DNA of 52,337 nucleotides from a virus (Duplodnaviria; Caudoviricetes), in the IMG/VR virus record IMGVR_UViG_3300035199_000755, positions 1 to 52,337 of that record; one strand, 5' to 3'. Below the pieces are notes generated by a model, which had not been told where the DNA came from, ran no database searches, and was given only the letters and a program-made list of their open reading frames with translations. Below are positions 5,256 through 35,239 of this stretch, in pieces (position 1 is the first letter of the stretch; every line of letters begins with the position of its first letter). A program made the position numbers and the translations under genes.

Positions 5256-5804
5256 CTACGCTGGTAATTTACCGGCACCGACAGCTAAGGGAGATAGGGG
5301 CTCTGGAGTATAGTTGCCAGTGGGGCTAACATTATACTGGGACTCTAATAAGTCTCTTAAGCTCTCTGACGAAGATTCATCATAGTTTTCTTTTATGTAA
5401 TTTAATGCCCGTGTTATTATAACCGTTCTTACATCTAGAAGGTTCTCGTGATTGTCAACGAGACGAGCAACATTCGCAGCAAATTCATTCAAATTCAACG
5501 GAGCCTTATCGGGTTTAGTAGGTTCAGATACATCAACGTCTTCAGATCCTTCCGTGTTAGCATCTGGTTTATCTGTTTCATCGGTGGAAGCTTCTTCGGT
5601 GGAAGCTTCTTCAGCCTCTTGTTCGAATAAAAATTGTAATGATGAAATAAGCGAATATTTTTCTTGTACAACAGTAGATTCAGATTCAAAGTTAATTAAA
5701 ATAGAATCAATTTGATCGTCAACGGATACCGTTGATAGTCTTTGACTCGTTTCCGTCAATACGTTTTGTATTAATGATCTTAGGTATTGCTTTGTTAAAA
5801 TCAT
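5256..5804 (-). CDS. hypothetical acidic protein (possible virion-internal protein)
   Basis: 182 aa, N-terminal MILTKQYLRSLIQNVLTE motif, acidic linker. Confidence 0.7.
   Translation of the reverse strand: MILTKQYLRSLIQNVLTETSQRLSTVSVDDQIDSILINFESESTVVQEKYSLISSLQFLFEQEAEEASTEEASTDETDKPDANTEGSEDVDVSEPTKPDKAPLNLNEFAANVARLVDNHENLLDVRTVIITRALNYIKENYDESSSESLRDLLESQYNVSPTGNYTPEPLSPLAVGAGKLPA
5581..5610. repeat. 15-bp tandem duplication TCGGTGGAAGCTTCT x2 (EEAST x2)
   Basis: Read directly; in frame within the acidic linker. Confidence 0.9.
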
Positions 5805-6439
5805 TTTAGCGCCTTTACCATATTCTCAGTTTTTACGAAACGTTTTTCTATAATACGCCAATTTAATTCCCGCATCATATTAGTAATGTACGCTTTTCTA
5901 TTATTGAGATAGTCTTTGCCGTACACTCTAGGCGATACATTTATAACGATTATAGGATGACAGCCGACGGGAACACCTTCACTATCACCATCGAGAGTTA
6001 CATTGATATAGCGTTGTAGAAAACTGCTAAAAATTGTGGCACCCCAGCCAGCGCGAGAGGCCATACAAGCAGCTATAAAATCCTTTTGCCAATCATCAAA
6101 AGTTCCGAAATCTCGAGTAAGTCTTAAATACGATAACGAATCCATGGATAGCTGAGAATTTGGGTCGGCTATATTAGAGAAATATAATTGACTAAGATAT
6201 ATTCCGTTCATGTTATTTATGAAATCTAAACTTAGGTCTCTGTACTCGCCACCCAGTGGCGTTGCGTTCATCCTATCTGCCACGTCTAGTTTGGCACTTG
6301 TCGTATTGAACATGTCTATTTGTGCCTCATAGCACTGTAACATAACTGTTTTTTGTTGAGCAGACAATAACTCTGTGGAAAGACTATACTGTTTCGGGCT
6401 TGCAACGAAGGATTCTTTAAGGTTTTTTTCTTGTGGCAT
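5801..6439 (-). CDS. Fe/Mn superoxide dismutase-fold protein with metal ligands substituted
   Basis: DFGTFDDWQKDFIA...GW...PIIVINVSPRVY..DY.NNRKAYI....LNW matches the SOD C-domain; DVWEHAY is replaced by NVSPRVY. Confidence 0.8.
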   Translation of the reverse strand: MPQEKNLKESFVASPKQYSLSTELLSAQQKTVMLQCYEAQIDMFNTTSAKLDVADRMNATPLGGEYRDLSLDFINNMNGIYLSQLYFSNIADPNSQLSMDSLSYLRLTRDFGTFDDWQKDFIAACMASRAGWGATIFSSFLQRYINVTLDGDSEGVPVGCHPIIVINVSPRVYGKDYLNNRKAYITNMMRELNWRIIEKRFVKTENMVKALK

Positions 6440-7798: not shown

Positions 7799-8832
7799 TA
7801 TGCTCCCAATAAAATGTGGGTGGAACTCTCTGTTTGTCCAGCCGTTGTTTGTCTAATAAACTTTGCGCGAGTTTGGAGCTCTGTGATATTTCGAGTACCC
7901 GAATATGATAAACCAGATACTAAACCATTGCGTAAATCCCTTAAAATATTTTCTACTGGCCCTTTATAGTTTATAAACGTCGAAATTCCTTCATTCGATG
8001 AGTATTTTCCCCGCCATTCCACTTGAGCTTTTTTACTCGCCATTCCACGATATTCTTTTTTAACGCCGTGTTTTGTAGTTACTTTTTCACCGGGAGACTC
8101 GTCTGTTCCCGCAAGTAAAGATCCTAACATAACAAAATCTGCTCCGGCTGCGAGGGCTTTTACGATATCGCCGCTTGTACGGATTCCTCCATCGGCGATG
8201 ACCCTTGCATCGCGATCTGATTTAGCACAGTCAAATATTGTCTGTAGGCCTGGTACACCATGACCCGTCTGAACCCTCGTAGAACATATCGATCCCCCTC
8301 CTATATTACATCGAACGCTATCGGCACCCCAATCAGATAATTCATTAAATCCTGTGAGCGTCGCAACGTTTCCTGCCATAATATGCACATCGAAACCTAA
8401 CTCTCGTCTAATGGCAGAGATGGCATCTTTAACCAGCGCATGATGGCCATGGGCAACATCAACGCAGATAACCCTCGCGCCTGCTTTAAACACACTTACT
8501 GCACGCTCTAAATAATTGGTAGTTACTCCTATCGCAGCCCCTATAAGACCATTTCCAGACGCCCGGACGGCATCAGATACAAGAGTTACCTGTTGTTCGA
8601 TGGTGTTATACCTATGAATAATTCCTAACCCACCCATTTTAGACATTTCCACAGCCATTGAAGTACCGGTAACAGTATCCATAGGGGCTGACACAATAGG
8701 TAAGCTTAATTCGTGATTATTATCCAACGCATTACCAACGTAAACCTCGTTTCGACTTTTTATGTCTGAATACTGGGGTACTAGTAATACATCACTATAC
8801 GTTAACGCAATTTCGATATTTTTATATTCCAT
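7798..8832 (-). CDS. IMP dehydrogenase / GMP reductase family, no CBS domains (GMP reductase favoured)
   Basis: [23 protein letters not shown] catalytic Cys, [20 protein letters not shown]; flap has KY instead of the IMPDH RY dyad. Confidence 0.9.
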
Positions 8833-8838
8833 AATATC

Positions 8839-9117
8839 TCATTTATCTTCCAAAAATATTTTTGAGCGGTTGCTTATTTTAATTGTATCCAGTTTTTGTG
8901 ACCTTGTCATTTTTTTAAACGATATTTCAGCAATCTGTGCGGCTGATCTATCAGTAAATTTGACAGTGTATATAACCTTTACTGGCCTACGAGATCTAGT
9001 ATACTTAGCGCCTTTCGAAGATGTATTGTGTTCATTTATCCTTCTATTTATATCCGTTGTTATTCCCGTATATAAAGTATCATCACTGCACTGCAACACA
9101 TAAAGACACCAGGACAT
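8839..9117 (-). CDS. GIY-YIG nuclease (short YhbQ-like)
   Basis: LYVLQCSDDTLYTGITTDINRRINEHN...GAKYTRSRRPV. Confidence 0.92.
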   Translation of the reverse strand: MSWCLYVLQCSDDTLYTGITTDINRRINEHNTSSKGAKYTRSRRPVKVIYTVKFTDRSAAQIAEISFKKMTRSQKLDTIKISNRSKIFLEDK

Positions 9118-9122
9118 ATTAA

Positions 9123-10109
9123 TTACCTCTTAAAAACATGGTATCCGTTAAATGACGTGGATCGTACCAGCGATTTACATAAATCCTTATATCCCAGCTT
9201 CGCAGCTCTGTGGGATGCAAGAATTAATGCCCAGTCTTTCCAGTACCCATCCGGAGAATAGGTGGTCACCAAAGCTTTTATTTTATTCACATCAGATGTG
9301 TTTCTTAAAGCCTCCTGAAATACATCTAAATGCTCGAACCTGGAAAACACGCACTTGGGCATTTTCGGCATTGGATCCCATACGCTCTTATTGTTCGATT
9401 TACCATTTAAAATTTTATTGCACATACTAAAATGTCTCTTATATACGTGCAAACTATTACTCATGTGTGTATATGAACCAAGACCAACATCAAGTTCCTG
9501 CGCAAGCTTTTCCTGAAACAATGTAAATGCTGGCACGTCATACGTTAAGCCGAATATGAGATCAGATGACCTCATGTTTACGATCATATGTAACTTATTT
9601 TCTCTGATAAAAAACTGAAGTGTCAAAGTACAAGGAACGTCTTTTTTATCTAAGTTATCACGTGGCGATTTCACGTGAACCACAGCTCTCCTAGAATCTG
9701 GATCCCTAGAAAGTTCATTCAACACAAATTGCCACTGGGAATTATCGCCTACTTTTAGTGTATCGTACATTGATGTTCTTGGATGAGGCTTAAAAATTCT
9801 TGCGCCGTATGCTGAATTTGCAGTTACACCGTCATCAGAAATATCAGACCAGAATGACGAATAGTTAGAAATCCAATCAGTCTTATTATCTCCAATAAAG
9901 TACCATACAGCTTCAGCTATTGTATACCCCAGCGAAGTATTTCTTTCTGGAACATATAATAGTCTATTTCTCGGGTTCGTTATACGAAATGATACGCCAA
10001 GAGATTCTTTGACCAGCATCCCACGTGGACTTGATACATATTCCGGTGATGTATATACACGATCTATTAAGTCATAAAAGCACTCTGTAAATGATTCGTA
10101 TGTTTTCAT
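9123..10109 (-). CDS. thymidylate-synthase-fold dCMP hydroxymethylase-like (cytosine-modifying) enzyme
   Basis: AYGARI, DPDSRRAV, DVPCT (catalytic Cys), MRSSDLIFGLTYD with Asp at the ThyA N177 position, SLHVY; ATG at 10109 overlaps the upstream stop (TAATG). Confidence 0.85.
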   Translation of the reverse strand: MKTYESFTECFYDLIDRVYTSPEYVSSPRGMLVKESLGVSFRITNPRNRLLYVPERNTSLGYTIAEAVWYFIGDNKTDWISNYSSFWSDISDDGVTANSAYGARIFKPHPRTSMYDTLKVGDNSQWQFVLNELSRDPDSRRAVVHVKSPRDNLDKKDVPCTLTLQFFIRENKLHMIVNMRSSDLIFGLTYDVPAFTLFQEKLAQELDVGLGSYTHMSNSLHVYKRHFSMCNKILNGKSNNKSVWDPMPKMPKCVFSRFEHLDVFQEALRNTSDVNKIKALVTTYSPDGYWKDWALILASHRAAKLGYKDLCKSLVRSTSFNGYHVFKR

Positions 10110-11035
10110 TAAAGTCCCCACCAATCAAACGTCATTTTTAATCCTGTTTCAAAATTTACGATCGGCTTATACCCTAGTTCATCGCTTATTTTTTTAACGT
10201 CTGCCAATGTGTGCATTACATCTCCTTCTCGCGCTGGAGCACTACGAACATCAATATCGTTAAATCTTTGTTCAAAATACGATAAAATTTCATTGTTTGA
10301 TACGCTGGTACCCGTTCCGACGTTATAACACGCACCTTCGAATGTTTTCTTATGGTTTGCAGCTAAAATATTTGCGTAAACTACGTTATCAACATGGACC
10401 ATATCCCTTGTCTGTTCACCGGTGCCATCAGACCTCAAATATCGACCATCGGCAATGGCATTACACCAAGCAGAAATCGCTGTACTGTATGGTGAATTTC
10501 CGTATTGATTACCACCAAAAACGTTAAAATATCGTAAACAAACCGCATCGAAATCATAAAGCTTACAAAATAACTGTATAAATTGTTCACAACATGACTT
10601 TTGTAACGCGTATGGAGATTCTGGACTATGAATATTGAGTTCTGGTGTTGGTAAATTACTGGCATCACCGTAAACAGAGCTGCTAGAAGCAAAAATAAGC
10701 CTATCGATATTCCCTCTACAGGCTTCCAGTAACTTAACGGTCTTCATAACATTATCGTCAGTCGTTTGGGCAGGATTTTTAACTGAATATGCTACACGTG
10801 GATTCGCGGCATGATGAAACACGATATCGAATTTTCCCTGCCTAACAAGACTGAGGACACGTTCTGACGCAAAACAAACCCAGATCTTCTTTATATCACA
10901 ATTTTCAACAAAACTTTTATGACCGTTTGATAAATCATCGACACACGTAACGTCCCATCCATCTTTTACAAGCTGTAACACCAAGTTCGATCCTATGAAT
11001 CCAGCACCACCTGTAACAAGAGCCCTTCTTTTCAT
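10109..11035 (-). CDS. NAD-dependent nucleotide-sugar 4-epimerase (extended SDR; candidate UDP-xylose 4-epimerase)
   Basis: TGGAGFIGS, ASSSSVYG, SPYALQK (YxxxK), LRYFNVFG, QTRD.VHV. Confidence 0.88.
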   Translation of the reverse strand: MKRRALVTGGAGFIGSNLVLQLVKDGWDVTCVDDLSNGHKSFVENCDIKKIWVCFASERVLSLVRQGKFDIVFHHAANPRVAYSVKNPAQTTDDNVMKTVKLLEACRGNIDRLIFASSSSVYGDASNLPTPELNIHSPESPYALQKSCCEQFIQLFCKLYDFDAVCLRYFNVFGGNQYGNSPYSTAISAWCNAIADGRYLRSDGTGEQTRDMVHVDNVVYANILAANHKKTFEGACYNVGTGTSVSNNEILSYFEQRFNDIDVRSAPAREGDVMHTLADVKKISDELGYKPIVNFETGLKMTFDWWGL

Positions 11036-11044
11036 TATATACTC

Positions 11045-12106
11045 CTATAAATTTAAAAATGCTTCTCGACCTGTTTTAGCAACATCTTCCAAAAAACTAG
11101 CTGCAAATTCAACACTAAAATCGTATTTTGACATGAGCGCCATCTTTTGTTCCTGAATTATTTCACTACGTTGCTCAAACGTAAGTTTCGATAACTTAAC
11201 GACGTTAGAAATAACGTCAACTTCTGAGGATACACACCACTTTTTTCCAAGAATGTCGTTCACCAAAAACTCTTCAGGAACCATACCGGGTGTGCCTACA
11301 ACAATGTTTTCAAAATATCTCGCAGTTACAAACCCCTGGTGCGAGTATCTATCTTTTGTAATATGCGTTGTGCAAATAAATTTGCTTAACTTTACCATAG
11401 ATTCATAGAAAGATACCCTGTCACAGAATGATACAAACTTGCTGTTTTTTATTAATTCCTCTGGAGGTGGCCGCTCTGGGGAACGTTGTAGCCAGTTTCC
11501 CCATACTTTCGATTGTATTCCACGATGACGTAATCCCTTTGCAACGTTGGAATAATACTTCGAAAACTGATATTCTCTCTCATAATTGTTTCCAACGTAA
11601 CCATATTCTGGTAGAACATAATCTGGTTTTATAAGTTGTTTAAAGTCGGTCCAGAACATGAACGAACGACGGGGTAACGTAAATTCGCAAGGCTTAAATG
11701 TCGGTTCTACGATAAGCATTTCTGGCCACTGCTTTTCATCATTAGATGTAATTTTTAAATCGGCATCCCAAACAATAACCGGTATTTTACCGTGATAATA
11801 ATTTAGTAACTCAAGCTGTCTATCATAATCTGGTTCAAATTTCGCTGGACCATAATTTTTATAAGTTGGCCAACGCCATTCAATAAACAACAAATCTAAA
11901 TCTGGGAAACGACTATCCGCGTATATCAATCCTGGGTATGCAATTTGCTCCCTCTTTTTTTGCATAGAGTATACAACGTGATTTCTATCTAAAAGTTCCT
12001 GCACCAATAGGGGCCTACCGTACCTATGACCGTCAGGTGTATTGGCAGTTTTACATTGATCGAACGATTCACAAAATCCCCAATAACTGATACCGATATT
12101 AGACAT
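11045..12106 (-). CDS. GT-B glycosyltransferase resembling T4 DNA beta-glucosyltransferase
   Basis: WDADLKI, YGYVGNNYERE, VWGNW and FVTARYFE...GMVPEEF align by eye with T4 BGT FTDIRL, IYGGSFRSGQRE, FFGNA and FITLRVWE...MLIDEEF. Confidence 0.75.
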   Translation of the reverse strand: MSNIGISYWGFCESFDQCKTANTPDGHRYGRPLLVQELLDRNHVVYSMQKKREQIAYPGLIYADSRFPDLDLLFIEWRWPTYKNYGPAKFEPDYDRQLELLNYYHGKIPVIVWDADLKITSNDEKQWPEMLIVEPTFKPCEFTLPRRSFMFWTDFKQLIKPDYVLPEYGYVGNNYEREYQFSKYYSNVAKGLRHRGIQSKVWGNWLQRSPERPPPEELIKNSKFVSFCDRVSFYESMVKLSKFICTTHITKDRYSHQGFVTARYFENIVVGTPGMVPEEFLVNDILGKKWCVSSEVDVISNVVKLSKLTFEQRSEIIQEQKMALMSKYDFSVEFAASFLEDVAKTGREAFLNL

Positions 12107-12634
12107 TTATTTTTCCTCCACAAAATCTAAAATTTCAGTTAATTCTCTATCTAAATTTTCATCATCGACATTTAACGATAAAACGTCGCACGAAGTCCAA
12201 CTTTTAAAATTTTCATAACCGTTATGAACGCTATTTAAAAATGACTCATCAATAATATCAAATTGGTCAATAACGTTATTATAAAAACTCCTGTGTAAAA
12301 GTACTATCTTTACAGACATTTGCTTACACATCGTATCAATAGATTTTAATACATTAAAATCTGTTTCTCGACCGCACATGGGGCCGTACACATACTCTGA
12401 CGGATATGCCCTGTCGAGTATAACGGACGTATTAGTTTGTTGAATAAACTCAAGTAGATAGGGTAACGAGTATTTTGTGGTATTTAAAAACCATGTACCT
12501 TCATCAAGTTCTTCAAAATGTTTCCATTCACCAGCGCTTTTAAACACCGGTATCGATAATTTTTTACTCAGGGCATTTGCGATATTCGTTTTACCACACC
12601 CATCTGGTCCTTCAAGTATTATAACTGTCGTCAT
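12107..12634 (-). CDS. dNMP kinase (thymidylate-kinase-like; candidate modified-dCMP kinase)
   Basis: IILEGPDGCGKT P-loop, ILDRAYPSEYVYG. Confidence 0.85.
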   Translation of the reverse strand: MTTVIILEGPDGCGKTNIANALSKKLSIPVFKSAGEWKHFEELDEGTWFLNTTKYSLPYLLEFIQQTNTSVILDRAYPSEYVYGPMCGRETDFNVLKSIDTMCKQMSVKIVLLHRSFYNNVIDQFDIIDESFLNSVHNGYENFKSWTSCDVLSLNVDDENLDRELTEILDFVEEK

Positions 12635-13728
12635 TATTCTAACTCCGTAGATACTCTTTTTAAGGATGAAGCAATTACTTGATCCATGTCATAATACTTG
12701 TAATCAGCTAGTCGACCACCAAAGACATAGTTTGAAAGTTTATCCGCTTCATTTTTGTATAGCTTAAACAACTCATTGTTTCGTTTATCGTTTATGGGAT
12801 AATACGGCGTTTTACTTCGTGTATATTCGACCGGTGTCTCAGTTGTTACGACCGTCTTCTTTGACTTTACCCCGTCAAAAAACTTATGTTCGATTGTTCT
12901 TGTGTGGGGTACATCAATAGAAGTATGATTGATTGTTACGACGCCTTGAAAATTCTCGGTGTCGTGGATCTTATGATCGAACCTCAATGCTCTATACTCT
13001 AAATCGCCATATTCATAACCAAAAAATTCATCCAATTTACCCGTATAGACAACCTTGGTAGCAATACTCTCGAAATACTTACGATCAGAAAAAAAATCCA
13101 CATCGAACTCAATCGGAATACCATCAAGCAGCTTATCAAATATTTTTGTATAGCCCCCAATTGGAATACCACAAAATTTATCGTTATAATAATTTGCGTC
13201 GAATGTTAACCTAAATGGTAGGCGCTTAATAATAAAACTAGGTAGCTCACTTGGATGTTTCATCCAGTGTTTTTCTGTATATCCACAAATTAACTTTTCA
13301 TAGACGTCCTTTCCTAACGCCGACAAAGCAAATTCTTCGAGGTTTTTTGGATTATCAAAATGAACCCTCGTTTCTTCTATTTTTTGAAGAGCCTCCGCTG
13401 GAGTTTTTACACCCCACAACTGATGAAACGTCCACATATTAAATGGTAAAGAATAAAATTCATCGTGATATTTCGCAATCGGAGAATAAATAAATTGCTT
13501 AAATTCTACTAGGTTATTTACATATTTCCATATTTTATCGCTGCTGGTGTGAAATATATGGGGACCATATACATGAACGTTTACCCCTTCAACGTTTTTT
13601 GTGTATGCATTCCCACCAATGTGAGGACGTTTTTCTAATACTAAACATTTTTTTCCATTTTTACTTGCCTCGTGAGCAAAAACTGACCCAAAAAATCCTG
13701 CGCCAACGATTACGTAATCATACATCAT
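12634..13728 (-). CDS. glf: UDP-galactopyranose mutase family flavoenzyme
   Basis: IVGAGFFG FAD motif, HIGGNAY, YGPHIFHT, YSLPFN, RTIEHK, PYYP, GRLADYKYYDMDQ. Confidence 0.95.
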   Translation of the reverse strand: MMYDYVIVGAGFFGSVFAHEASKNGKKCLVLEKRPHIGGNAYTKNVEGVNVHVYGPHIFHTSSDKIWKYVNNLVEFKQFIYSPIAKYHDEFYSLPFNMWTFHQLWGVKTPAEALQKIEETRVHFDNPKNLEEFALSALGKDVYEKLICGYTEKHWMKHPSELPSFIIKRLPFRLTFDANYYNDKFCGIPIGGYTKIFDKLLDGIPIEFDVDFFSDRKYFESIATKVVYTGKLDEFFGYEYGDLEYRALRFDHKIHDTENFQGVVTINHTSIDVPHTRTIEHKFFDGVKSKKTVVTTETPVEYTRSKTPYYPINDKRNNELFKLYKNEADKLSNYVFGGRLADYKYYDMDQVIASSLKRVSTELE

Positions 13729-14710
13729 TACCTAATATACCCTTAAAATATTTTATTGTTTTAACTAATCCCGCCTCTAAGTCTATTTTAGGATACCACT
13801 CAAGATATTTCACAGCTTTATCTATATTCGGCCTTCTTTGTGTTGGATCATCAACGGGTAAGGGTTTGTAGGTTATCTCTGACGTCGATCCCATCAATTT
13901 CTTTATCATCGCTGCAAGCTCGATCATCGTATGCTCAGTCGGATTGCCGATATTAATAGGGGTTGAGCAAGAAACATTCGTTAAGTTCATTAATGAAATA
14001 AGGCCGCGGATTTGATCATCTACATAGCAAAAACTACGTGTTTGTTTTCCGTCGCCGAACATCGTTATATTTTTATTGCGAAAACATTGATATATTAAAT
14101 TACTAACGACTCTGCCATCATCTGGATCCATATAAGGACCGTATGTGTTAAAGATTCTTGCGACTCGAATATCCAACCCTTCTGTCCTAGCATAATCATA
14201 GCATAACGATTCAGCCGCCCTCTTTCCCTCATCATAACATGCTCGAGGACCTATGGAATTCACATTCCCACGATATTCTTCTCTTTGTGGATGCAATAAT
14301 GGATCACCGTATATTTCCGACGTAGAAGTAAAAAGCAATCGAGCGTTATACCTCAAAGCAAGTTTACATACGTTATTTGTTCCAACAACCGATGTTAACA
14401 TTGTCTTTATTGGATCCTGCTGATACTTTGGGGGAGATGCAGGACAGGCAAGGTGATATATCTGGTCAACTCCGTCAGGAAAGTGGCGTTTAACAAGTAT
14501 ACTATTAGAAATCTGAGGTGATGTTACATCATCGCTAAAGTACCTAAAGCGATGATCCGTAAGGGCCAATTGTTTAACTTCATTATATCGATTATTGGTT
14601 GAAAAATTATCTATGCAGACGACCTTATTAACTGGTCCCTCTAATAATTTTTTACATAAATTCCACCCTAAAAAACCTGCTCCACCTGTTACAATAACAT
14701 TAATTCCCAT
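13718..14710 (-). CDS. uxs: UDP-glucuronate decarboxylase (UDP-xylose synthase)
   Basis: YHLACPASP, TSTSEIYGDP..HPQ.E.Y.GNVN.IGPRACYDEGKR, DDGRVVSN, QTRSFCYVDD, DDP..RRP. Confidence 0.93.
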   Translation of the reverse strand: MGINVIVTGGAGFLGWNLCKKLLEGPVNKVVCIDNFSTNNRYNEVKQLALTDHRFRYFSDDVTSPQISNSILVKRHFPDGVDQIYHLACPASPPKYQQDPIKTMLTSVVGTNNVCKLALRYNARLLFTSTSEIYGDPLLHPQREEYRGNVNSIGPRACYDEGKRAAESLCYDYARTEGLDIRVARIFNTYGPYMDPDDGRVVSNLIYQCFRNKNITMFGDGKQTRSFCYVDDQIRGLISLMNLTNVSCSTPINIGNPTEHTMIELAAMIKKLMGSTSEITYKPLPVDDPTQRRPNIDKAVKYLEWYPKIDLEAGLVKTIKYFKGILGNDV

Positions 14711-14716
14711 AACATT

Positions 14717-14745
14717 ATTATAATTCAGGAGGCCGCTTTAGTACA
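14717..14745 (-). promoter_or_regulatory. sigma70-like promoter TGTACT-N17-TATAAT driving the uxs operon
   Basis: Consensus -10 at 14717-14722, 6 nt before the ATG; no SD, so probably leaderless. Confidence 0.6.
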
Positions 14746-14759
14746 ACCGAATCTCTATG

Positions 14760-15833
14760 TTAATTCATTCCACCGAACAACGTAAGCGCTATAAGGCCCG
14801 GTGCTTTATCATTGATATAGATTCCAGAAAACAGCGTCTGAGTTCTACCACCTACATAAGACATAGCAGATTCTAATCGCTTACTAACGTCTGGATTTGA
14901 TGCCATATCAGATGTAACAAGCAATAACAACACACCCGTCTCAGGATTGTTTGTGGGTGCAAGACACGGAGATCCTCTTAAACACCCCTGGAATACAATC
15001 GAGCCTAAGTCTAATGATGATGGATCCTTTACTACGGTGCTACCCAGGAACATACGTCCGTTGGTGCTTAAGCACCTTTCAAGATCCTTTGAATCAAATG
15101 TTTGAATTTCTGAGCTCTGAGCTGCGAATTTTAGCACCTGCCAGAATAGCTTCGCAAATGTCATGTTTGCGGCAGGATACATGTTTAACATTCCGACTTT
15201 ACCCCTAAGCAACTGTAACTGCTTCTCGTTATCAACAATGATGTGGGGATGGTTTCTAACATCGTTTAACACATTAGCGTAATTATTTCCGATAGTCGGA
15301 TTTAACAGTTCCTGCGCTGATGGTTTACTGACGATATACACAACTTTACCTGCGGCTCCAGACGATTCCATAAACCGCGACATACAACCATGAAGTGCAT
15401 GGGATGCGCTTCCTGTACCGCCGCCACCGCCGGCGAGGACGAATAACCAATCGACTTTTCCAAACCTCGCCCTTAAAGCGTCCTCAACCATAGCGCTATT
15501 TTCGCTTAAAATCTTCTTTCCCAGCTGAACATCTTTACCAACACCATCGGCGCCTGGTAACAGTAAGAAGTGCGCAGGATCCAAGCCACCTGGTTGATCC
15601 TTGGTTGTTGTATTTACCAAAAAAGTTTTTGTAAAACCTAAATCAAGAAATGCTTTGGCGAGCTTTCCGCCGCCTCCTCCGACGCCTAGAAAACCGCAAT
15701 TAATTGCTGATTGAGCTGAATTTTCCGGTAACATGCGTTCATCTTGGGCTGTCGGTTCATCATCATAATTTCCTAAGAAATCAAAATCATCATCGACTGG
15801 ATTAATATACGCATCATCATTGCCTGTACTCAT
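14760..15833 (-). CDS. tubulin/FtsZ-family GTPase (PhuZ-like)
   Basis: GVGGGGGK, VNTT..D, GVGKD..LG, GGGGGTGS signature, VDN, FDSKD T7-like loop; AGGAG SD. Confidence 0.85.
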   Translation of the reverse strand: MSTGNDDAYINPVDDDFDFLGNYDDEPTAQDERMLPENSAQSAINCGFLGVGGGGGKLAKAFLDLGFTKTFLVNTTTKDQPGGLDPAHFLLLPGADGVGKDVQLGKKILSENSAMVEDALRARFGKVDWLFVLAGGGGGTGSASHALHGCMSRFMESSGAAGKVVYIVSKPSAQELLNPTIGNNYANVLNDVRNHPHIIVDNEKQLQLLRGKVGMLNMYPAANMTFAKLFWQVLKFAAQSSEIQTFDSKDLERCLSTNGRMFLGSTVVKDPSSLDLGSIVFQGCLRGSPCLAPTNNPETGVLLLLVTSDMASNPDVSKRLESAMSYVGGRTQTLFSGIYINDKAPGLIALTLFGGMN

Positions 15834-15910
15834 TATAAACTCTCCTATAAACCACGATTATATTATTAGTCATTCATAAATATACGTAAAACAAACTAAC
15901 GTATCTATTA

Positions 15911-16978
15911 CTAATAGGTTTCAAATTCCCAGACCGACACTAGATCAACATCGTTTGGGTTGTTAGTTGGATTAAGACTTAAGCCCACGATATTACCCTC
16001 AGAAAAAGACGCGTCGTGATCAAATTCAAATTCGTATGATGTATTCGCAGACGCCATATCCACGGTCACTGTTGCGGTTGCGCTCGTATCAAGGTTTGCA
16101 TTTCCATCCGTGTTTTTATGTAGGGCAATTGCAGTAGAGCCGGCTGCGTTGGTTGATCTAGCAATGACTTTAATTAGCACTCCGTCATACGGCACAACAA
16201 ATTTATTGTTTACGCCGGGCGATGCATTTTGTCCGGTCTGATTAAACCTTATATACGCTTGGCCTGTACCTGCAGAATCATATTTGTGGGTATGGATGTG
16301 TTTTTGTTTTGCCCAAAGACTACCAGATATAACAACGTCGCCGCCGAATACCGAGGTTCCCCTTGTAACACTGTTCCTTGAGTCTATTGTTCCTGAAACG
16401 AAGAATGCGGTGTCACCTCCCGGCTCAACATTTTCCGTACCTGCTTTACTGCTGAGGATTATTAAATCGGCATTCGCTTCTAGTAGAGTGGTTTCAGCTT
16501 CAGAATCATACCCACCATATAACACACCAGACACGACCAAGTCTCCACCAAAAACAGAGGTGCCTTTTGTTCCCGAGTCCTTTGATTCTATTGCTCCTGA
16601 AACGAAGAATAGGGTGTCACTTGCCGGTTCAGCATTATGGGAACCTTCCTGACTACTGACAACAATCTGGTCGGCATTAAACTCTAGAAATGTTCCGTTG
16701 GCTTCATTGTCAAATCCACCATATAATACGCCAGATATGACTAAATCACCACCAAAGACGGAAGTACCTGTATAATCCTTACCCTCGTCTTGGCCTTCGC
16801 CCGTGGTGCTGCCTGATACGTAGAATACACTGTCGATACCAACATCGGTGGGAATTCTAGGAAAATCCCCTGAGTCTGATACGTTCGCAATAATTATGCT
16901 TCCAGTAAGACCTATTTCAGAACCGTGTTCACCGTCCTGATCTATTGATCCTGATATTTGACTTGAAACTAAACCCAA
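15911..16978 (-). CDS. tail fibre / virion appendage protein
   Basis: Three F.VSG...VFGGD.V.SG repeats, C-terminal beta-sandwich; TTG start with GGGG SD. Confidence 0.7.
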   Translation of the reverse strand: MGLVSSQISGSIDQDGEHGSEIGLTGSIIIANVSDSGDFPRIPTDVGIDSVFYVSGSTTGEGQDEGKDYTGTSVFGGDLVISGVLYGGFDNEANGTFLEFNADQIVVSSQEGSHNAEPASDTLFFVSGAIESKDSGTKGTSVFGGDLVVSGVLYGGYDSEAETTLLEANADLIILSSKAGTENVEPGGDTAFFVSGTIDSRNSVTRGTSVFGGDVVISGSLWAKQKHIHTHKYDSAGTGQAYIRFNQTGQNASPGVNNKFVVPYDGVLIKVIARSTNAAGSTAIALHKNTDGNANLDTSATATVTVDMASANTSYEFEFDHDASFSEGNIVGLSLNPTNNPNDVDLVSVWEFETY

Positions 16979-17002
16979 AGTTCATTTCCCCTATTAATAA
17001 GA

Positions 17003-17028
17003 TGTGGGGAGGGAGACCCCTCCCCGCA
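17003..17028 (-). terminator. GC-rich hairpin, likely terminator or mRNA stabiliser
   Basis: TGTGGGGAGGG-AGAC-CCCTCCCCGCA inverted repeat in the 58-bp gap, followed on the minus strand by TCTTATT. Confidence 0.55.
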
Positions 17029-17036
17029 CCAAATAA

Positions 17037-18710: not shown

Positions 18711-18746
18711 TTTAAAATCCTCCTATTATAAACGAGAATACGATGA

Positions 18747-25106: not shown

Positions 25107-28100
25107 TCAGTCTATCATACGAATGTCCCATGTTCTTGTACTAAATCCGAAGTCTCCATTATCGACTTTGGCAATACATACCCTATTTGCACGTAGGTTT
25201 ATTTGGTGGGTATCTTTTAGACCCCAGCAAAACATACGCTTCTTTTCCCCATTCTCTCCAAGAATGCTTAATAATAAATACGGTTTATTTTTTCTTGTTC
25301 GTTTGACATGTATATCATCTATAATAAACCAATGTATGGGTAACTCTGGATTATATTTGTTAATCGGTGGTACTTCACGTTTATCTAGCTCCTGACGTAA
25401 TTTGGAAGACACTATCAGCGAAATATCTACATGCCCAACGAGCGTTTTAAGCATTTCAATTTTTTCTGACCTAGTCCAATCTTCTATTTCCCGCGTATCA
25501 GAAATTAAACAATGAAAATCATCAATCGTAAATTTCTTCTTTTTAAGAAGTAAGTTGTTTTCAACAACGATATGGTGCATATGCCTATACGATGAAAATA
25601 ATTTATCTTCGCCAACGACATCAAGCGAATTAAATGCTCCCACCTTGATAAGGTTCTCTAACGAGCGCTTATTGAACTTGCCATGTTTCCACGCCCCATC
25701 ATCGTTCCATAATAAATCGTGTATATTATTATAAGGTCTATTGTTCGTAATTTCTTCCACCGCGGATAATCCCACACCCTTGACCGTTAAAAAGGACGGC
25801 ATGAATTTTTTATCAGGCATAATTGTCCACTTGTCAGATGCATAATTTATATCGATATTTACTATGTCATACCCACGTGACTTAATTTCAGAAAGAGCTC
25901 TAGAACGCTTGCGAGGATCTTCAGCCTGGGTCTCCATGTAAGCACACAGCCATTCTGCCTCGTAATATGTCATTAACCATGCACAGTAGTATGAATCAAT
26001 TGCATATGATACAGCGTGGCTTTTATTAAATCCGTACCCACTAAAAAAGAGTATTTTTTCGTACAGGTCATCAGCCACCGCTGGATCGATACCATTTTTC
26101 TTAGCACCACTGACGAATTGTTGCTTAAGTTCACGAACCTGTTTTGCTTGAGCGTCTTTTTTACTTGCTGATCGCTTCATAATCAATCTACGAATCATAT
26201 CACAATCTTCCTGGGGAAAGCCTGCGACAACATTGCATAGCTCCATAACTTGCTCCTGAAAAATAATTGCGCCGAATGTAGGTTCAAGAACTTGCTTGAT
26301 TAGCGGGTGTTTATAGTCTATACTTTCAGGATTAGATTTTGATTTCATGTATATCTTATGAACATTTGCCGATAGTGGCCCTGGACGATAAATAGACGTT
26401 AGCGTTGCTATATCTATAATACTTCTCGGCTCAGATTGCATAAACAATTTTTGTGCTCCACGTTGGGTTGCCTGGAAAATGCCGCCCCATTTTCCCGAAT
26501 GGTAAATATTCTCATACACATTCTGATCGTTCATATCCATTACCTTTGGATCCATATGCTCATTGAACCAATTCTTAACATTATCAAAACTGGGATTTGG
26601 TGTACCTTCATGACGTTTAAGTATTAATTCGATGCAACGTTGAATTATTCGTAACGTTTCAAGACCGAGGAGGTCGAACTTGATCCAGCCAAATTCCTCG
26701 AGGTGCTTATAGTGTATTCCTTCTACCCAGGGGGTTTGTGCTTCACCTCTGGCAGTAATGACAGGCATTCGTTCTAAAACATTTTCGCTAATAATAACAC
26801 CACCAGCGTGGCGACCTAGTGCCTTATTCTGCTTGAAAAGTACGCTAATGGGTTCTGCTATATGGGGATATTTTTCAATAAAATCCTTAAACGACTTGCT
26901 ATATTTTATAGCATCATCATACAGAAGCGTAAATAGGTTTTTATCCATTCCCTTTTTAAAAGTTGCCGCCTTTACGTCATTTTCAACAGGCGACATGGCT
27001 GCATTCACTTCTTCGAACGGAATTCCGTAAAATCTAGCGATATCTTTTACAAGCGATTTTAATTTAAACGTATTATAGTTAGAGATTGGTAAAATATTTT
27101 GAGCTCCGAACTGTTCCCTAAGTAACTCTAACAATAAATCGCGGTCTGCAACATCAGTATCAATGTCGGGGGCACCCTGACGATGGGTGCTAAGAAACCG
27201 CTCGAACAACAACCCATATTCTATGGGATCAACGTTTGTTAAACCAAGAACATACGCGACCAGTGAACCAGCGGCAGAACCCCTACCAGGACCTATAAGC
27301 ATGCGTTTACGAGCAACATCAAGAATCGCTTTCATGGTAAGAAAATACTTTGAAAACTTCTTTTGCTTAATAACCTTAAGTTCGGTAATAAGTCTGTTAA
27401 CGTATTGTTTGTCAGTCAATCCGCACTTTCGTAATCCCTCTTTACACATTTGAACGAGCGCTTCATCATCTGTTTTACCCTTTGGAACAACATAACTGGG
27501 GAGCTTTACTGACTTGTCTGCAACTATGTTATCAATCTCATGATGAACAATATCGCTTGTTCTTTCTATCGCATCCAATACTATGTCGTTGTTGTAGAAA
27601 CTATATTCTTCAGTCGTTTCAAAATAAGATTCCCATGTTTGCTCAGCATTTTTTGGATACAGTTCGCATTTTAACTCGTCTCTGCTCTTGGGTAATTTAC
27701 TCGGATCAAACTCCTTATAATTTAACCAGCCTAGCTTTTTATACAACTCACGTTCTTTCCAGTGATCTGGGTGGGCATAGTGGGAATCGCATGTCACAAC
27801 AAGGTTATCATTCAAACCTTTATCATCTGCAAATTGAAGAATTGCTCTGTTTACTAGATGTTGCGCAGGTAATTTATTAAACTGCAATTCTAACTTAACA
27901 TTTTCATCACCTGCGACATCAGATAACGCATCGAACACATTACCGATACCCGTCTGAACCTTTGTCATAAGACTCGTATCGTTTAATAGGCTAGCATGAA
28001 GATTATCAAATTCTACCTGTTGTAAGTGTTTAAATACCTCGTATGCCATTGGACCACCGAGGCATGCAGTTGATATAAGAAGATGACCGCCTTTGGCGGC

Positions 28101-28706
28101 TTCCTTTAACATTTTATAATCCACCCTAGGAAATCTATAGTATCCCTCTAGATACCCACGAGAAACGAGATGAAAAAGTCTCTGTAGACCCACGGACGTC
28201 TTTGGTAAAACAACGAGGTGGTGGCGTCTTTTCACTGGATCATAAAATTTTCCGCTCTTTGTTTCTTCTTCGTTCTCAACAGTTAAAGATGATCCATCAC
28301 CGATTTCTATGTTCGTTGTTTCGTCATTGCCGTCGACTATCGCCGTCAGTGGCGTTACGATTTGCTCACGTTGATCCAACAGTGTTTTAATAGCCTCAGG
28401 GTCGCCCTTCTTTCTTGCCTTGTTCAATTCATAGTCAACACGCCACATATCCAAATCAGGATGAACGTACATTTCGCAACCCGGAACGAACTTAAACGGT
28501 ACTCCCGCTTTATTCATTTTTTCAGCGTGAAGATAGGCATGGGCAAAACTATTCATATGGCCATGGTTTGTTAGGCACCAGGCATCCATTCCGTTTTCTT
28601 TAACAAAATCAATATGTTCTTGTGGATAGCCGAGGCCATCAAATGTTGAAAATCCATCATGGCTATGGAGGGAAGTGAATCTGTTTGGTTTATTTTTATT
28701 CCGCAT
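25107..28706 (-). CDS. dnaE: DNA polymerase III alpha subunit (family C)
   Basis: PHP motifs LHSH, TNHG, GCEMY, DSHY; GPGRGSAAGSLVAY, PDIDTD, HAGG, KFDLLGL, YGFNKSHAVSY; C-terminal OB-like region. Confidence 0.96.
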   Translation of the reverse strand: MRNKNKPNRFTSLHSHDGFSTFDGLGYPQEHIDFVKENGMDAWCLTNHGHMNSFAHAYLHAEKMNKAGVPFKFVPGCEMYVHPDLDMWRVDYELNKARKKGDPEAIKTLLDQREQIVTPLTAIVDGNDETTNIEIGDGSSLTVENEEETKSGKFYDPVKRRHHLVVLPKTSVGLQRLFHLVSRGYLEGYYRFPRVDYKMLKEAAKGGHLLISTACLGGPMAYEVFKHLQQVEFDNLHASLLNDTSLMTKVQTGIGNVFDALSDVAGDENVKLELQFNKLPAQHLVNRAILQFADDKGLNDNLVVTCDSHYAHPDHWKERELYKKLGWLNYKEFDPSKLPKSRDELKCELYPKNAEQTWESYFETTEEYSFYNNDIVLDAIERTSDIVHHEIDNIVADKSVKLPSYVVPKGKTDDEALVQMCKEGLRKCGLTDKQYVNRLITELKVIKQKKFSKYFLTMKAILDVARKRMLIGPGRGSAAGSLVAYVLGLTNVDPIEYGLLFERFLSTHRQGAPDIDTDVADRDLLLELLREQFGAQNILPISNYNTFKLKSLVKDIARFYGIPFEEVNAAMSPVENDVKAATFKKGMDKNLFTLLYDDAIKYSKSFKDFIEKYPHIAEPISVLFKQNKALGRHAGGVIISENVLERMPVITARGEAQTPWVEGIHYKHLEEFGWIKFDLLGLETLRIIQRCIELILKRHEGTPNPSFDNVKNWFNEHMDPKVMDMNDQNVYENIYHSGKWGGIFQATQRGAQKLFMQSEPRSIIDIATLTSIYRPGPLSANVHKIYMKSKSNPESIDYKHPLIKQVLEPTFGAIIFQEQVMELCNVVAGFPQEDCDMIRRLIMKRSASKKDAQAKQVRELKQQFVSGAKKNGIDPAVADDLYEKILFFSGYGFNKSHAVSYAIDSYYCAWLMTYYEAEWLCAYMETQAEDPRKRSRALSEIKSRGYDIVNIDINYASDKWTIMPDKKFMPSFLTVKGVGLSAVEEITNNRPYNNIHDLLWNDDGAWKHGKFNKRSLENLIKVGAFNSLDVVGEDKLFSSYRHMHHIVVENNLLLKKKKFTIDDFHCLISDTREIEDWTRSEKIEMLKTLVGHVDISLIVSSKLRQELDKREVPPINKYNPELPIHWFIIDDIHVKRTRKNKPYLLLSILGENGEKKRMFCWGLKDTHQINLRANRVCIAKVDNGDFGFSTRTWDIRMID

Positions 28707-28788: not shown

Positions 28789-30282
28789 ATGAAACATGAA
28801 TTAATTCGAAAATTTATTAGATCACATATACACCGGATGAATGAAGGAAAAGCGGCGGCAGTGACCCTGCTTCCGCAGTTCGATGATCCAAACCTTACAT
28901 ACGCACCCTTCACCAGGGATATAATCGATAAATTTCTACCCAGAACATACGATAAATTTCCAGGTAGTGGAGACAATACGGTGGTTGGTCGCTTATTATA
29001 TTCTCTTGCAAAAGCTGGATTAGTTAACTCAGAAAGACCACCCAAATTTCAATTTGGTTCAAGTAGACTGGCAGCATATTCAAAATATGCGTCAGAAAAA
29101 CTCCTATTTCCGGGAGAAGATCCAGAAATAGCTAGCGCAGCAAAGTCCATGAAGCAAAAATTTGGAGATCTTGATATTGATGTACAGTTTGCACAAGGAA
29201 TAAAGACAAAAGATATAGCCAGCTTTATTACACAAAAATTTCCGTTTATAAAAGCATTACCGAAAGCAGAAGCGCATCTTGCCGTTCGATATGGTAACCA
29301 CGTATACCAAGTAGACCTAATAAACGTCCAAAAAGAGCATGAGTCAACGGAGCTTGTTTTTCAGTTTAGTTCGTTTAAAGACCTCGCAAGCGAAGTTAAA
29401 GGAGCGTTTCAAACGGAGCTGTTAAAAGCTGTAGCTGCTATGAGAGATTCAAACGTTGAATTACAAGAGATGGATAAATTTTCGATAGATAATCCTGCCC
29501 ATGAATTTTCAATACAATACAAGAAATTCATTGATTGTGGATATATACCCTCGAACCTAAGATATAAGGTGGCAAAGCTAGCTAAGGGAATTCAACTGGT
29601 TGTTGATTTTAAAAACCCTTCTTTCAAACGAGGGAAATCACTCGCATGTCCCCTAACAAATGTACTATCTTATGACGATCTTGATCAAATTGCAAAATTT
29701 CTGCTAGATGATGATTCTGTAACAGGCGCGATAATTTTATCAGCCGTCGATTTAGCAAAATATGTCGGTGATAACTTCTCACCGTCAAAAAAACAAATAA
29801 TTGCAACAATCATACAGGACAATAGAGCGATAAATAGACTGGACGAAGAAGATCGAAAAAAAGGACTTAACATAATTTTACAGCTTTTAAAATTAAACAG
29901 TGGTATATCTGAACAGCATTGGATGCAATTTATGTTGCCTCGTACAACTACAAGTTTCTTTAAAGATAAAAAACTTGCATATAAACAACAAAAATTAAAT
30001 GACAATAAAACGCTTACAAAGATATTACGTAAACTTCAAATAAAAGACAGTTTATCAGAAAAAGAAAAATCGATAATAAATTCGACCTTAGAAGAAGTTG
30101 GTAGTGGAGATCCCATATTTGCAATACAACAAAAAATCTTTATGAATCAGCAGGCGGCGCGAGCCATTAGAGATACGGATTTCGATTTTCTCAATAACCG
30201 TTCTTCAACCTATCTAAATTCACGCGATTTTTCTTACAGTATGCCTGGTAAAGCTCGTCGGAAGTTACCCCGCACAGAATAA
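28789..30282 (+). CDS. hypothetical protein with Pol-beta-type nucleotidyltransferase motifs
   Basis: FGSS...KFGDLDIDV...YQVDL; the only credible plus-strand gene. Confidence 0.6.
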   Translation: MKHELIRKFIRSHIHRMNEGKAAAVTLLPQFDDPNLTYAPFTRDIIDKFLPRTYDKFPGSGDNTVVGRLLYSLAKAGLVNSERPPKFQFGSSRLAAYSKYASEKLLFPGEDPEIASAAKSMKQKFGDLDIDVQFAQGIKTKDIASFITQKFPFIKALPKAEAHLAVRYGNHVYQVDLINVQKEHESTELVFQFSSFKDLASEVKGAFQTELLKAVAAMRDSNVELQEMDKFSIDNPAHEFSIQYKKFIDCGYIPSNLRYKVAKLAKGIQLVVDFKNPSFKRGKSLACPLTNVLSYDDLDQIAKFLLDDDSVTGAIILSAVDLAKYVGDNFSPSKKQIIATIIQDNRAINRLDEEDRKKGLNIILQLLKLNSGISEQHWMQFMLPRTTTSFFKDKKLAYKQQKLNDNKTLTKILRKLQIKDSLSEKEKSIINSTLEEVGSGDPIFAIQQKIFMNQQAARAIRDTDFDFLNNRSSTYLNSRDFSYSMPGKARRKLPRTE

Positions 30283-30589
30283 GTAACTCCAGCGTATAAT
30301 GCAGGGACTCAACAAGCTCTTCTAAAAATTCGCTTCGATCGAATTCTTTGTTTTCGGTCTTACGATGCTTTTTCCAGTTTTTCAAATGAGCAAGTGCCTC
30401 GAACATTTCTTCTACAGAACGCAAGGTAATATCACGACAAAACCTTTGATCGTATTTATCAGTTAAATCAACTGGCCAAGACGGTAGATCGTCTGATTTT
30501 GTTCTCTTATACTCTTGCATTAATTTTTCCTGAAGGTTAAACATGCTTTCAAGTCGATTAGATAACAATTTTTTCTTCTCCTCGCCCAT
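30191..30589 (-). CDS. all-alpha dUTPase / dCTP pyrophosphatase (MazG superfamily, T4 gp56-like)
   Basis: EEMFE, NWKKH.K, EELVESLHY, Y.KKN.VN..R.KNGY. Confidence 0.85.
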   Translation of the reverse strand: MGEEKKKLLSNRLESMFNLQEKLMQEYKRTKSDDLPSWPVDLTDKYDQRFCRDITLRSVEEMFEALAHLKNWKKHRKTENKEFDRSEFLEELVESLHYTLELLILCGVTSDELYQAYCKKNRVNLDRLKNGY

Positions 30590-32640: not shown

Positions 32641-32699
32641 GCTGCTCCGTTGCACATTCTATAAAATAATAAAAATAAATAGATTGTGAGTAAATGTAT

Positions 32700-33284: not shown

Positions 33285-33329
33285 AATTCTTCCTTTCTAT
33301 ACAATGATTACAAAAATGCTACTGTGATA

Positions 33330-35198: not shown

Positions 35199-35239
35199 AA
35201 TATTCTCCTTAATTTACTTTCACGTTTGTATTTTGATTG

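Follow-up and report, generated by a model that had tools for sequence, protein, structure and literature searches.

Introduction

The closest characterised enzyme to the glycosyltransferase (GT) described here is the beta-glucosyltransferase (BGT) of phage T4, which carries the CAZy label GT63 and serves as the standard reagent for tagging 5-hydroxymethylcytosine (5hmC). Whether a given restriction, CRISPR or glycosylase defence is effective against a phage depends on the sugar coat of its DNA, and new DNA sugars have given new tools. The GT in question is encoded on the minus strand at positions 11045..12106 of IMG/VR record IMGVR_UViG_3300035199_000755 (Duplodnaviria; Caudoviricetes). The whole 52,337-nucleotide stretch of that record is called the window below. 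The window GT is a GT-B enzyme remotely related to T4 BGT and is predicted to glycosylate 5hmC in DNA. Because its gene is packed between hydroxymethylcytosine genes and genes for an unusual sugar with a five-membered ring or five carbons, the window phage probably carries on its DNA a sugar that has so far not been observed there.

The idea is not new, as BGT-like GT-B genes near ThyA homologs have been mined at scale and the trio of ThyA homolog, BGT and mutase is already annotated in Lactobacillus phage ATCCB. The available part of one study (bioRxiv 10.1101/2023.12.21.572611) reports that GT-B, BGT-like enzymes from metaviromes act on 5hmC DNA. It describes about 25,000 mined GT-bearing contigs, mostly from IMG/VR, and gives an association with thymidylate synthase homologs for about 28% of GT-B hits. 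A 2026 survey of T4-type GTs, as far as its available text goes, applied PSI-BLAST to isolates only. In ATCCB (MK504445.1), genes 0045-0047 lie side by side and are annotated as a thymidylate synthase homolog, a 'beta-glucosyltransferase' and a uridine diphosphate (UDP)-galactopyranose mutase; we found no characterisation of these three genes in the literature. Genes for UDP-galactopyranose mutase occur in 86 phage records.

Outside phages, a relevant sugar-nucleotide route is that of Campylobacter jejuni HS:15. The available part of PMC10615251 describes formation of UDP-beta-L-arabinofuranose (UDP-beta-L-Araf) by Ugd, a UDP-glucuronate (UDP-GlcA) decarboxylase, a UDP-xylose 4-epimerase and an FADH2-dependent UDP-arabinopyranose mutase. 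New here are a BGT sister family that is invisible to Pfam, a specific pentose or furanose route, and sugar cassettes that vary. Our literature searches found no paper on a Pfam-invisible BGT sister family joined to a UDP-GlcA-derived pentose or furanose route, and none on UDP-glucuronate decarboxylase in bacteriophage DNA modification. Searches on UDP-galactopyranose mutase, phage and hydroxymethylcytosine returned nothing on the window GT family, and among the matches listed no title dealt with arabinofuranosyl-hydroxymethylcytosine in phage DNA.

Proposed function of the window GT

We propose that the window GT is a GT-B enzyme that glycosylates the phage's own 5hmC DNA after replication, using a UDP-furanose or a UDP-pentose, and we give this reading a probability of roughly 70%. 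It builds on the fold, the homology of the C-terminal half to BGT, the identities of the neighbouring genes and a conserved gene order, and from these we infer the DNA acceptor, the 5hmC base, the donor and the stereochemistry. In the proposed scheme, a MazG-like dCTPase and a ThyA homolog would turn the dCTP/dCMP pool into 5-hydroxymethyl-dCMP. The adjacent thymidylate-kinase-like kinase would phosphorylate this product, and a DnaE-type polymerase would then incorporate the hydroxymethylated nucleotide.

Finally, the GT would glycosylate the hydroxymethyl group, with a UDP-sugar as the donor. UDP would be bound by R177, R263 and E266, as it is in T4 BGT by R195, R269 and E272, and an invariant Asp after strand 4 (D116, possibly together with D114) would act as the general base, which would make the mechanism an inverting one. 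The donor would come from co-transcribed neighbours, with a decarboxylase converting UDP-GlcA to UDP-xylose (UDP-Xyl), a 4-epimerase converting UDP-Xyl to UDP-L-arabinopyranose (UDP-L-Arap), and a mutase contracting the latter to UDP-L-arabinofuranose (UDP-L-Araf).

A viral GT family related to T4 BGT

The open reading frame (ORF) at 11045..12106, first singled out in a sequence-only reading of this DNA, is real: it lies on the minus strand, starts with ATG and encodes 353 amino acids. The motifs quoted in that reading are all present in the translation (FIEWRWPTY at residues 74-82, WDADLK at 113-118, FVTARYFE at 259-266 and EEF at 278-280). Likewise, the strings that it quoted for T4 BGT (FTDIRL with D100, FITLRVWE with R269/E272, and EEF) are found in the b-gt product from NC_000866. 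The window GT matches no Pfam family at E up to 0.01 and none in PHROGs or NCBIfam. Searches of PDB sequences, by phmmer and with a 30-sequence profile, returned noise only (TbDC13, E 0.82; TRAF6, E 0.33), and a tblastn search of 50,697 phage records (E 1e-3) was empty.

Relatives are nearly all metagenomic. Among 937 candidates, 189 proteins are related at E up to 0.001; two of them stand out with 93% and 86% identity to the window GT, and the remainder reach at most 60%. An exhaustive search extended the family to 246 cluster representatives. When 185,579 cellular species genomes were queried with two peptide patterns, a single 51-residue GT fragment was recovered, at the end of a contig of a metagenome-assembled genome, and the family is thus essentially viral. 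The generic GT-B C-domain PF13524 is matched at E up to 0.01 by 29 of 53 family members and 35 of 73 distant representatives, and it is also carried by many BGT homologs. The window GT itself has no PF13524 match at this threshold, and its homolog in locus L025 scores 39.2 bits (gathering cut-off 25). Isoelectric points do not separate the window GT family from the BGT family (medians 6.39 vs 6.35).

The sequence-only reading had proposed relatedness to T4 BGT, and profile-profile comparison with negative controls bears this out. An alignment of 53 GT family members, reaching down to 22% identity, was compared by hhalign with an alignment of 25 BGT-family proteins, which gave 98.55% probability and E 1.4e-15 over 313 columns spanning both proteins (98.1% when the comparison was repeated locally). 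The same 53-member profile matched the single T4 BGT sequence at 91.9% (E 7e-7), and its hidden Markov model (HMM) recognised 43 of 43 BGT-family proteins at 21-53 bits. Reversed and cross-domain control pairs gave 0.2-0.5%. Shallower comparisons of the window GT with T4 BGT were weak, both by single-sequence BLASTP (E 0.009 for one comparison) and with a profile of close relatives (19%). The ESM Atlas feature neighbours of the window GT include clusters of PF09198, the BGT N-domain, at ranks 8 and 28.

Two other phage GTs were tried as relatives and rejected. The 53-member profile gave 0.6% with T4 alpha-GT. For the RB69-type arabinosyltransferase 1, the close-relative profile gave 0.1-0.2% against two pieces of RB69 p046:47, and the 53-member profile gave 0.2% against a control alignment of relatives that comprised five sequences only, full-length forms of about 300 aa being left out. 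On RB69-type proteins, the HMMs for the window GT family and the BGT family both gave negative bit scores.

In T4 BGT, we take D100 to be the catalytic Asp and R191, R195, R269 and E272 to be the residues that contact UDP. The role of D100 is described in the available part of bioRxiv 10.1101/2023.12.21.572611, and it is also implied by the title of PDB entry 1nzd. In the C-terminal half, hhalign pairs window R263 with BGT R269, E266 with E272, F280 with F286, Y254 with Y261, G203 with G214 and R177 with R195; the first three pairs, the last of them within EEF, had been aligned by eye in the same way. In the N-terminal half, D116 is paired with D100 and N84 with N70. In the catalytic-base region, the register of the by-eye alignment was off by one: A115-D116-L117-K118 aligns with T99-D100-I101-R102, and it is D116 that meets D100, not A115 or D114.

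These positions are conserved in the 53-member alignment (R263 in 53/53, E266 in 52/53, R177 in 51/53, D116 in 52/53 and D114 in 50/53). R78 and Q97, which belong to an EWRW region of the N-domain peculiar to the family, are invariant in it. In the structural model, D114 and D116 come after strand 110-113, the topological place of BGT D100, and this placement would fit an inverting mechanism with an Asp base.

The AlphaFold2 model, built with the family alignment, is a two-Rossmann GT-B structure with a predicted local distance difference test score (pLDDT) of 93.5 and a predicted template modelling score of 0.91. It superposes on T4 BGT (1qkj) by VIA-align with Z 22.1, a root-mean-square deviation of 3.8, 311 residues aligned and 17% identity. 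Whole-fold searches do not single out BGT, which ranks 7 by Foldseek and 5 in a wide structure search. Foldseek against BFVD returned generic viral GT-B proteins only.

Several of these comparisons weigh against the proposed reading. In the structural comparison, 1qkj shares first place, to within 1 Z unit, with the GT4-type enzymes tll1591, PimA and BshA. For a model of the N-domain (pLDDT 89.4), the top match is PimA with Z 10.2, and BGT comes 15th with Z 8.0. The N-terminal halves alone align at 14.9% (E 0.0018, 107 columns, vs 0.12-0.36 for controls), whereas the C-terminal UDP-sugar-binding halves alone reach 98.6% (E 1.4e-15, 162 columns). PF09198 is present in 42 of 42 BGT homologs, whereas no match to it was obtained among the 53 family members and the 73 distant representatives. 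Since members match PF13524 and not PF09198, part of the link to BGT could reflect this common C-domain superfamily. The D116-D100 pairing sits in the weakly supported N-terminal stretch, and BGT R191 falls in an alignment gap, where it is left with no partner. The N-half alignment and the N-domain model also agree with the sequence-only reading, which had described the N-terminal acceptor domain as different from that of BGT. As judged from these alignments, the family of the window GT is sister to BGT as far as the donor-binding half is concerned, which is its only securely BGT-like part, and its N-terminal half has become too divergent to be recognised with confidence.

Sugar-nucleotide genes and the candidate donor

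Six minus-strand genes run head to tail, with gaps or overlaps of a few bases, in the order decarboxylase, mutase, kinase, GT, epimerase and ThyA homolog; the overlaps within the sugar-gene string are 1 to 16 bases. The first encodes a UDP-glucuronate decarboxylase (UDP-xylose synthase, UXS; 330 aa; 13718..14710, minus strand), identified by phmmer against the PDB. It matches human UXS1 (4gll, 2b69) at E 8.8e-96 over residues 5-324, with the next family at 5e-34. Overlapping it by 11 bases is the gene for a flavoenzyme of the UDP-galactopyranose mutase family (364 aa; 12634..13728, minus strand; PF03275 GLF, E 4.6e-67), which overlaps the kinase gene by 1 base. This mutase passes the UDP-galactopyranose mutase equivalog TIGR00031 (383.1 bits vs a cut-off of 303.75) and is predicted to make a UDP-furanose, either UDP-L-Araf or UDP-galactofuranose (UDP-Galf).

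On the other side of the GT lies the gene for an NAD-dependent UDP-sugar 4-epimerase of the short-chain dehydrogenase/reductase (SDR) type (308 aa; 10109..11035, minus strand; PF01370, E 2.2e-48). Its best PDB matches are 6dnt (2.8e-53), WbgU (1.2e-48) and WbpP (5.2e-43), and it scores 180 bits on the GalE model, below cut-off. With UXS, a 4-epimerase and a mutase equivalog identified, the earlier proposal that the neighbours would supply a UDP-pentose or UDP-furanose was a fair one. UDP-L-Araf is the donor that we would name first for the window GT, at somewhat less than even odds. UDP-Galf or its N-acetyl form is rather unlikely, though a serious candidate, while UDP-Xyl or UDP-L-Arap is doubtful and some other donor equally so.

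The best-surviving alternative, which we consider somewhat unlikely, is that the enzyme glycosylates 5hmC DNA with galactofuranose or N-acetylgalactofuranose. The epimerase would then make UDP-Gal(NAc) and the mutase would contract the ring, and the product of UXS would go to a further transferase, as yet unseen, or into a different process. The distribution of the epimerase is in keeping with this, as an ortholog (at least 44% identity) occurs in 19 of 25 viral (IMG/VR) loci, making it the commonest sugar partner of the GT and the sole sugar enzyme kept across the family. Moreover, its best solved relatives are hexose or N-acetylhexosamine 4-epimerases (WbgU, WbpP and GalE), and the window mutase scores above the UDP-galactopyranose mutase equivalog cut-off. 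A mutase gene lies directly beside the GT gene in a separate clade with 39-40% identical GTs (L078, L079, L080 and L092), where mutase and epimerase accompany the GT and no UXS occurs in contigs of up to 11.9 kb, which favours galactofuranose in that clade. A mutase also adjoins the GT in an 87%-identical fragment (L090), and such mutase neighbours, that of BGT in phage ATCCB included, count for the main reading of the donor as well. Phage ATCCB combines a ThyA homolog, BGT and mutase with no UXS in the 10 kb shown, and the available part of PMC13326640 proposes that RL38J1 uses a phage mutase for UDP-Galf.

The layout of the window itself argues for the pentose route instead. The UXS gene overlaps the mutase gene and forms one gene string with the GT gene, no second GT was found in the 52 kb window, and UXS, epimerase and mutase make up a complete linear route, as in C. 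jejuni. In addition, a flavoenzyme and an SDR take the place of the mutase in UXS-bearing relatives, which suggests that the UXS product is tailored.

The counts among relatives speak against a pentose donor as a general property. Of the 25 viral loci, none has the mutase and 2 have true UXS; of the 66 metagenome loci, 5 have the mutase and 2 have true UXS. Many of the metagenome loci lie on short contigs, and a few share their contig with an IMG/VR locus. Five whole related records contain the mutase in one case and UXS in one case. As the mutase and UXS are not family traits, related phages seem to use different donors, and a pentose can be proposed for the clade of the window at most. Also on this side of the balance, no UDP-glucose dehydrogenase is found among the window ORFs scanned, and a second GT may lie elsewhere, with only about 20% of the genome in hand. 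The host could supply UDP-GlcA, and about 80% of the phage genome lies outside the window.

Neighbour genes also vary together with the GT sequence. The two residues before the invariant UDP-binding Arg (window residues 261-263, approximately 11318-11326) read Thr-Ala-Arg in the window GT and in L019, whose whole record has a mutase gene, and Thr-Gly-Arg in the mutase-adjacent loci L078-L080. Thr-Ala-Arg is also found in the BGT of phage ATCCB, which adjoins a mutase (L097:4162-5241 is listed alongside). Ser-Pro-Arg occurs in 56 of 78 loci, and 0 of these 56 have a mutase in the flank. There are exceptions to the pattern, namely Pro-Ala-Arg and Ala-Ala-Arg with no nearby mutase. We regard these residues as a lead for donor specificity, not as a result.

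Three cassette types can be distinguished at the kinase-GT site: mutase, UXS with mutase, and UXS with a DAO-type flavoenzyme and a short SDR. The last type is seen in UXS-bearing relatives that have no mutase, in which a DAO-family FAD oxidoreductase (362-364 aa) and an SDR (214-221 aa) are encoded just upstream of the kinase-GT pair (L033:3722-5457 and L016:4709-6459). They may be another way of tailoring a UDP-pentose. In many relatives, a second SDR with RmlD-like matches follows the GT (L003:8028-9017, L012:8050-9042), and in L003 it is itself followed by a 260-aa ORF with no Pfam match. This second SDR is a further sign of varying sugar cassettes at the GT site. Only tentatively, and with the odds against it, do we suggest that an abundant, uncultured aquatic lineage replaces cytosine with 5hmC coated with L-arabinofuranose, that phage enzymes (decarboxylase, 4-epimerase and mutase) derive this sugar from UDP-glucuronate and a BGT-derived GT transfers it, and that the kinase-GT slot is a swappable sugar cassette. 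If so, related phages would carry different DNA glycans.

Predicted hydroxymethylation genes and the candidate acceptor

The role of the window GT in DNA modification is suggested mainly by its gene context, which is conserved in about 90 loci and from which both the acceptor and the 5hmC base are deduced. The stop codon of the kinase gene abuts the GT start. The kinase is a thymidylate-kinase-like P-loop nucleotide kinase (175 aa; 12107..12634, minus strand; phrog_761 thymidylate kinase, E 1.2e-16) with weak dNK and Thymidylate_kin Pfam matches below cut-off, and it is 24% identical to the RB69 p045 kinase by BLASTP. We predict that it acts on 5-hydroxymethyl-dCMP. All 25 viral loci have it next to the GT, and all 25 also contain a polymerase match; among the 66 metagenome loci, the kinase is present in 59.

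The ThyA-family pyrimidine hydroxymethylase (333 aa; 9123..10124, minus strand; PF00303, E 4.9e-26) is predicted to be a dCMP hydroxymethylase. Its best PDB match is the CMP 5-hydroxymethylase MilA (E 2.4e-43), and T4 dCMP hydroxymethylase is matched at 5.7e-14. A ThyA homolog is found in 22 of 25 viral loci, the three misses being DNA that ends 0.6-2.9 kb after the GT, and in 46 of 66 metagenome loci. The window protein has the catalytic Cys and, like T4 gp42, Asp at the positions of E. coli D169 and N177. All 14 relatives examined also have Asp at both diagnostic positions, whereas RB69 p048 has Asn at 169. The available part of PMC13326640 proposes D169N as a mark of 5-hydroxy-dCMP synthases and describes N177 as a uracil/cytosine switch, citing Hardy and Nalivaika 1992. 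Because both positions are Asp, as in gp42, the predicted product of the ThyA homolog is 5-hydroxymethyl-dCMP; the D169 signature is a correlation from one paper, not proof.

The dCTPase of the proposed scheme may be a MazG-like NTP pyrophosphohydrolase (132 aa; 30191..30589, minus strand; phrog_12184 nucleotide pyrophosphohydrolase, E 1.5e-19), which matches RB69 gp56 dCTPase by BLASTP at E 7e-8 over 70 residues. The replicative polymerase is DnaE-like (25107..28706, minus strand; phrog_405, E 6.6e-224), shares no more than 30% identity with its counterpart in any isolate, and is encoded directly upstream of the kinase-GT pair in most relatives. The window also encodes dCMP deaminase, thymidine kinase and ThyX.

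An acceptor other than DNA (a protein, lipid carrier, polysaccharide or small molecule, for example virion proteins or a host surface glycan) strikes us as improbable. The N-terminal domain does resemble PimA, WbnH and other GT4-type enzymes rather than BGT, the top whole-fold matches include lipid, thiol and glycan transferases, and the sugar genes of the window adjoin large, repeat-rich and probably structural proteins at 15911-24269. In relatives, however, such structural-looking genes are absent from that position, and about 90 loci keep the GT together with the kinase, the ThyA homolog and the polymerase. At the sequence level, the homology to BGT does not extend to the other phage GT-B enzymes tested, and the search of 185,579 cellular species genomes with two peptide patterns recovered a single fragment.

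That the acceptor is a different modified base, either 5-hydroxycytosine as in RB69, DLP3 and RL38J1 or 5-hydroxymethyluracil, is similarly improbable: the trio of kinase, first GT and ThyA homolog is laid out as in RB69 (p045, p046:47, p048), DLP3 and RL38J1, and the synthases of 5-hydroxy-dCMP (5hodCMP) are likewise reported to match MilA best, but the window and all 14 relatives examined have Asp at the D169-equivalent, as in T4 gp42 and not Asn as in RB69 p048, Asp at the N177 position indicates cytosine over uracil, and ThyX, dCMP deaminase and thymidine kinase indicate that a normal dTTP supply is kept.

The phage and other genes of the window

The window record is about 20% complete by CheckV and related contigs are 145-278 kb long; thus, its source is a large uncultured aquatic phage lineage of approximately 200-280 kb. 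No tRNA genes were found in the window. A promoter and terminator scan of 8700-16100 was at chance level (26 sites vs 26.2 expected, and 4 vs 5.0).

Between the polymerase and the kinase-GT pair, three large ORFs of 355, 557 and 1840 aa at 15911-24269 (minus strand) have no family match. Those of 355 and 557 aa have Gly-rich repeats in common (SVFGGDLV(I/V)SG-like), and all three probably represent an insertion of structural or fibre proteins at this place. A 357-aa protein (14760-15833, minus strand), encoded immediately upstream of the sugar genes, shows weak likeness to tubulin/FtsZ, with Pfam Tubulin at E 0.0012 and TIGR00065 ftsZ at E 1.3e-5, both below cut-off. Large phages are known to have tubulins, and this protein may be one of them.

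A stand-alone GIY-YIG ORF (92 aa; 8839-9117, minus strand) lies between a GMP-reductase/IMPDH-family gene and the ThyA homolog. Searched with this ORF, the 25 viral and 66 metagenome loci gave no match, and it may be a small insert resembling a homing endonuclease. Many relatives keep, downstream of the module, a protein whose C-terminal domain is of the Fe/Mn superoxide dismutase type, and the window also has a pterin-4a-carbinolamine dehydratase-like ORF; the two are at 5801-6439 and 1729-2136 on the minus strand. A chaperone set at 31660-35671 (minus strand) comprises DnaJ with three Pfam domains, Hsp70/DnaK (E 8e-248) and Hsp20. In addition to the DnaE-type polymerase, an ORF of 392 aa at 47536-48714 (minus strand) has a weak match to family-A DNA polymerases (E 8e-8, below cut-off).

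Significance

The window GT family is large, apparently restricted to viruses and invisible to Pfam and PHROGs. Because it is tied to a conserved hydroxymethylase-kinase module, it marks environmental phages as probable carriers of glycosylated hydroxymethylcytosine (hmC). If the donor is UDP-L-Araf or UDP-Galf, the window GT would be a DNA furanosyltransferase and could provide an orthogonal label for 5hmC. To our knowledge, no DNA furanosyltransferase activity on hmC has been shown so far. Should L-Araf be the sugar, the modified base would differ in its chemistry from glucosyl-hmC as well as from RB69's D-arabinosyl-5-hydroxycytosine.

Comparison with described systems

The metavirome enzymes tested in bioRxiv 10.1101/2023.12.21.572611 differ from the window GT in that, according to the available part of that study, they accompany a methyltransferase and a TET-type dioxygenase, so that 5hmC arises post-replicatively. 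The terms xylose, arabinose, galactofuranose and mutase are absent from its main text.

In C. jejuni HS:15, three of the four enzyme classes of the UDP-L-Araf route correspond to genes that lie side by side in the window, where their substrate roles are predicted. Unlike the proposed phage pathway, the C. jejuni product goes into capsular polysaccharide, as the available part of PMC10615251 describes, and the enzyme that opens the route, UDP-glucose dehydrogenase, is not in the window.

The modules of RB69, DLP3 and RL38J1, which serve arabinosyl- and galactosyl-5-hydroxycytosine, consist, in the available part of PMC13326640, of a nucleotide kinase, a first GT and a ThyA homolog. They also include phage-encoded sugar-nucleotide synthesis, with a UDP-galactopyranose mutase in RL38J1. 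The RB69 kinase is weakly homologous to that of the window (E 8e-7). In contrast, the RB69-type first GT is unrelated in sequence (0.2%), and the ThyA homolog has Asn at the D169 position and makes 5hodCMP. The RB69-type route to arabinose also differs, as it starts from ribulose-5-phosphate and proceeds via an isomerase, a kinase/uridylyltransferase and a phosphatase according to the same part of PMC13326640, whereas the window route would start from UDP-glucuronate.

Phage ATCCB resembles the window in its ThyA homolog (39% identical) and its mutase (46% identical), and its GT, like that of the window, has Thr-Ala-Arg before the conserved Glu. The ATCCB GT is, however, a true member of the BGT family (100%, E 6e-48 against the 25-protein BGT alignment) and remote from the window family (91.1%, E 1.1e-6, in the C-terminal half only), and the 10 kb shown contain no UXS or 4-epimerase.

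T4 BGT differs from the window GT in several respects. The window family lacks PF09198, has R78 and Q97 as invariant residues of its own and leaves BGT R191 unmatched. The neighbours of the window GT make a UDP-pentose or UDP-furanose by prediction, whereas T4 relies on host UDP-glucose, and the window phage belongs to an uncultured lineage of approximately 200-280 kb with a DnaE-type polymerase. Nevertheless, the two enzymes have the GT-B fold and a similar size in common (353 aa in the window vs 351 aa in BGT). Both keep the UDP-binding Arg and Glu together with Tyr and Gly positions, and both have an Asp after strand 4. Finally, just as T4 b-gt adjoins gene 42, the window GT gene lies near a hydroxymethylase-type ThyA homolog.

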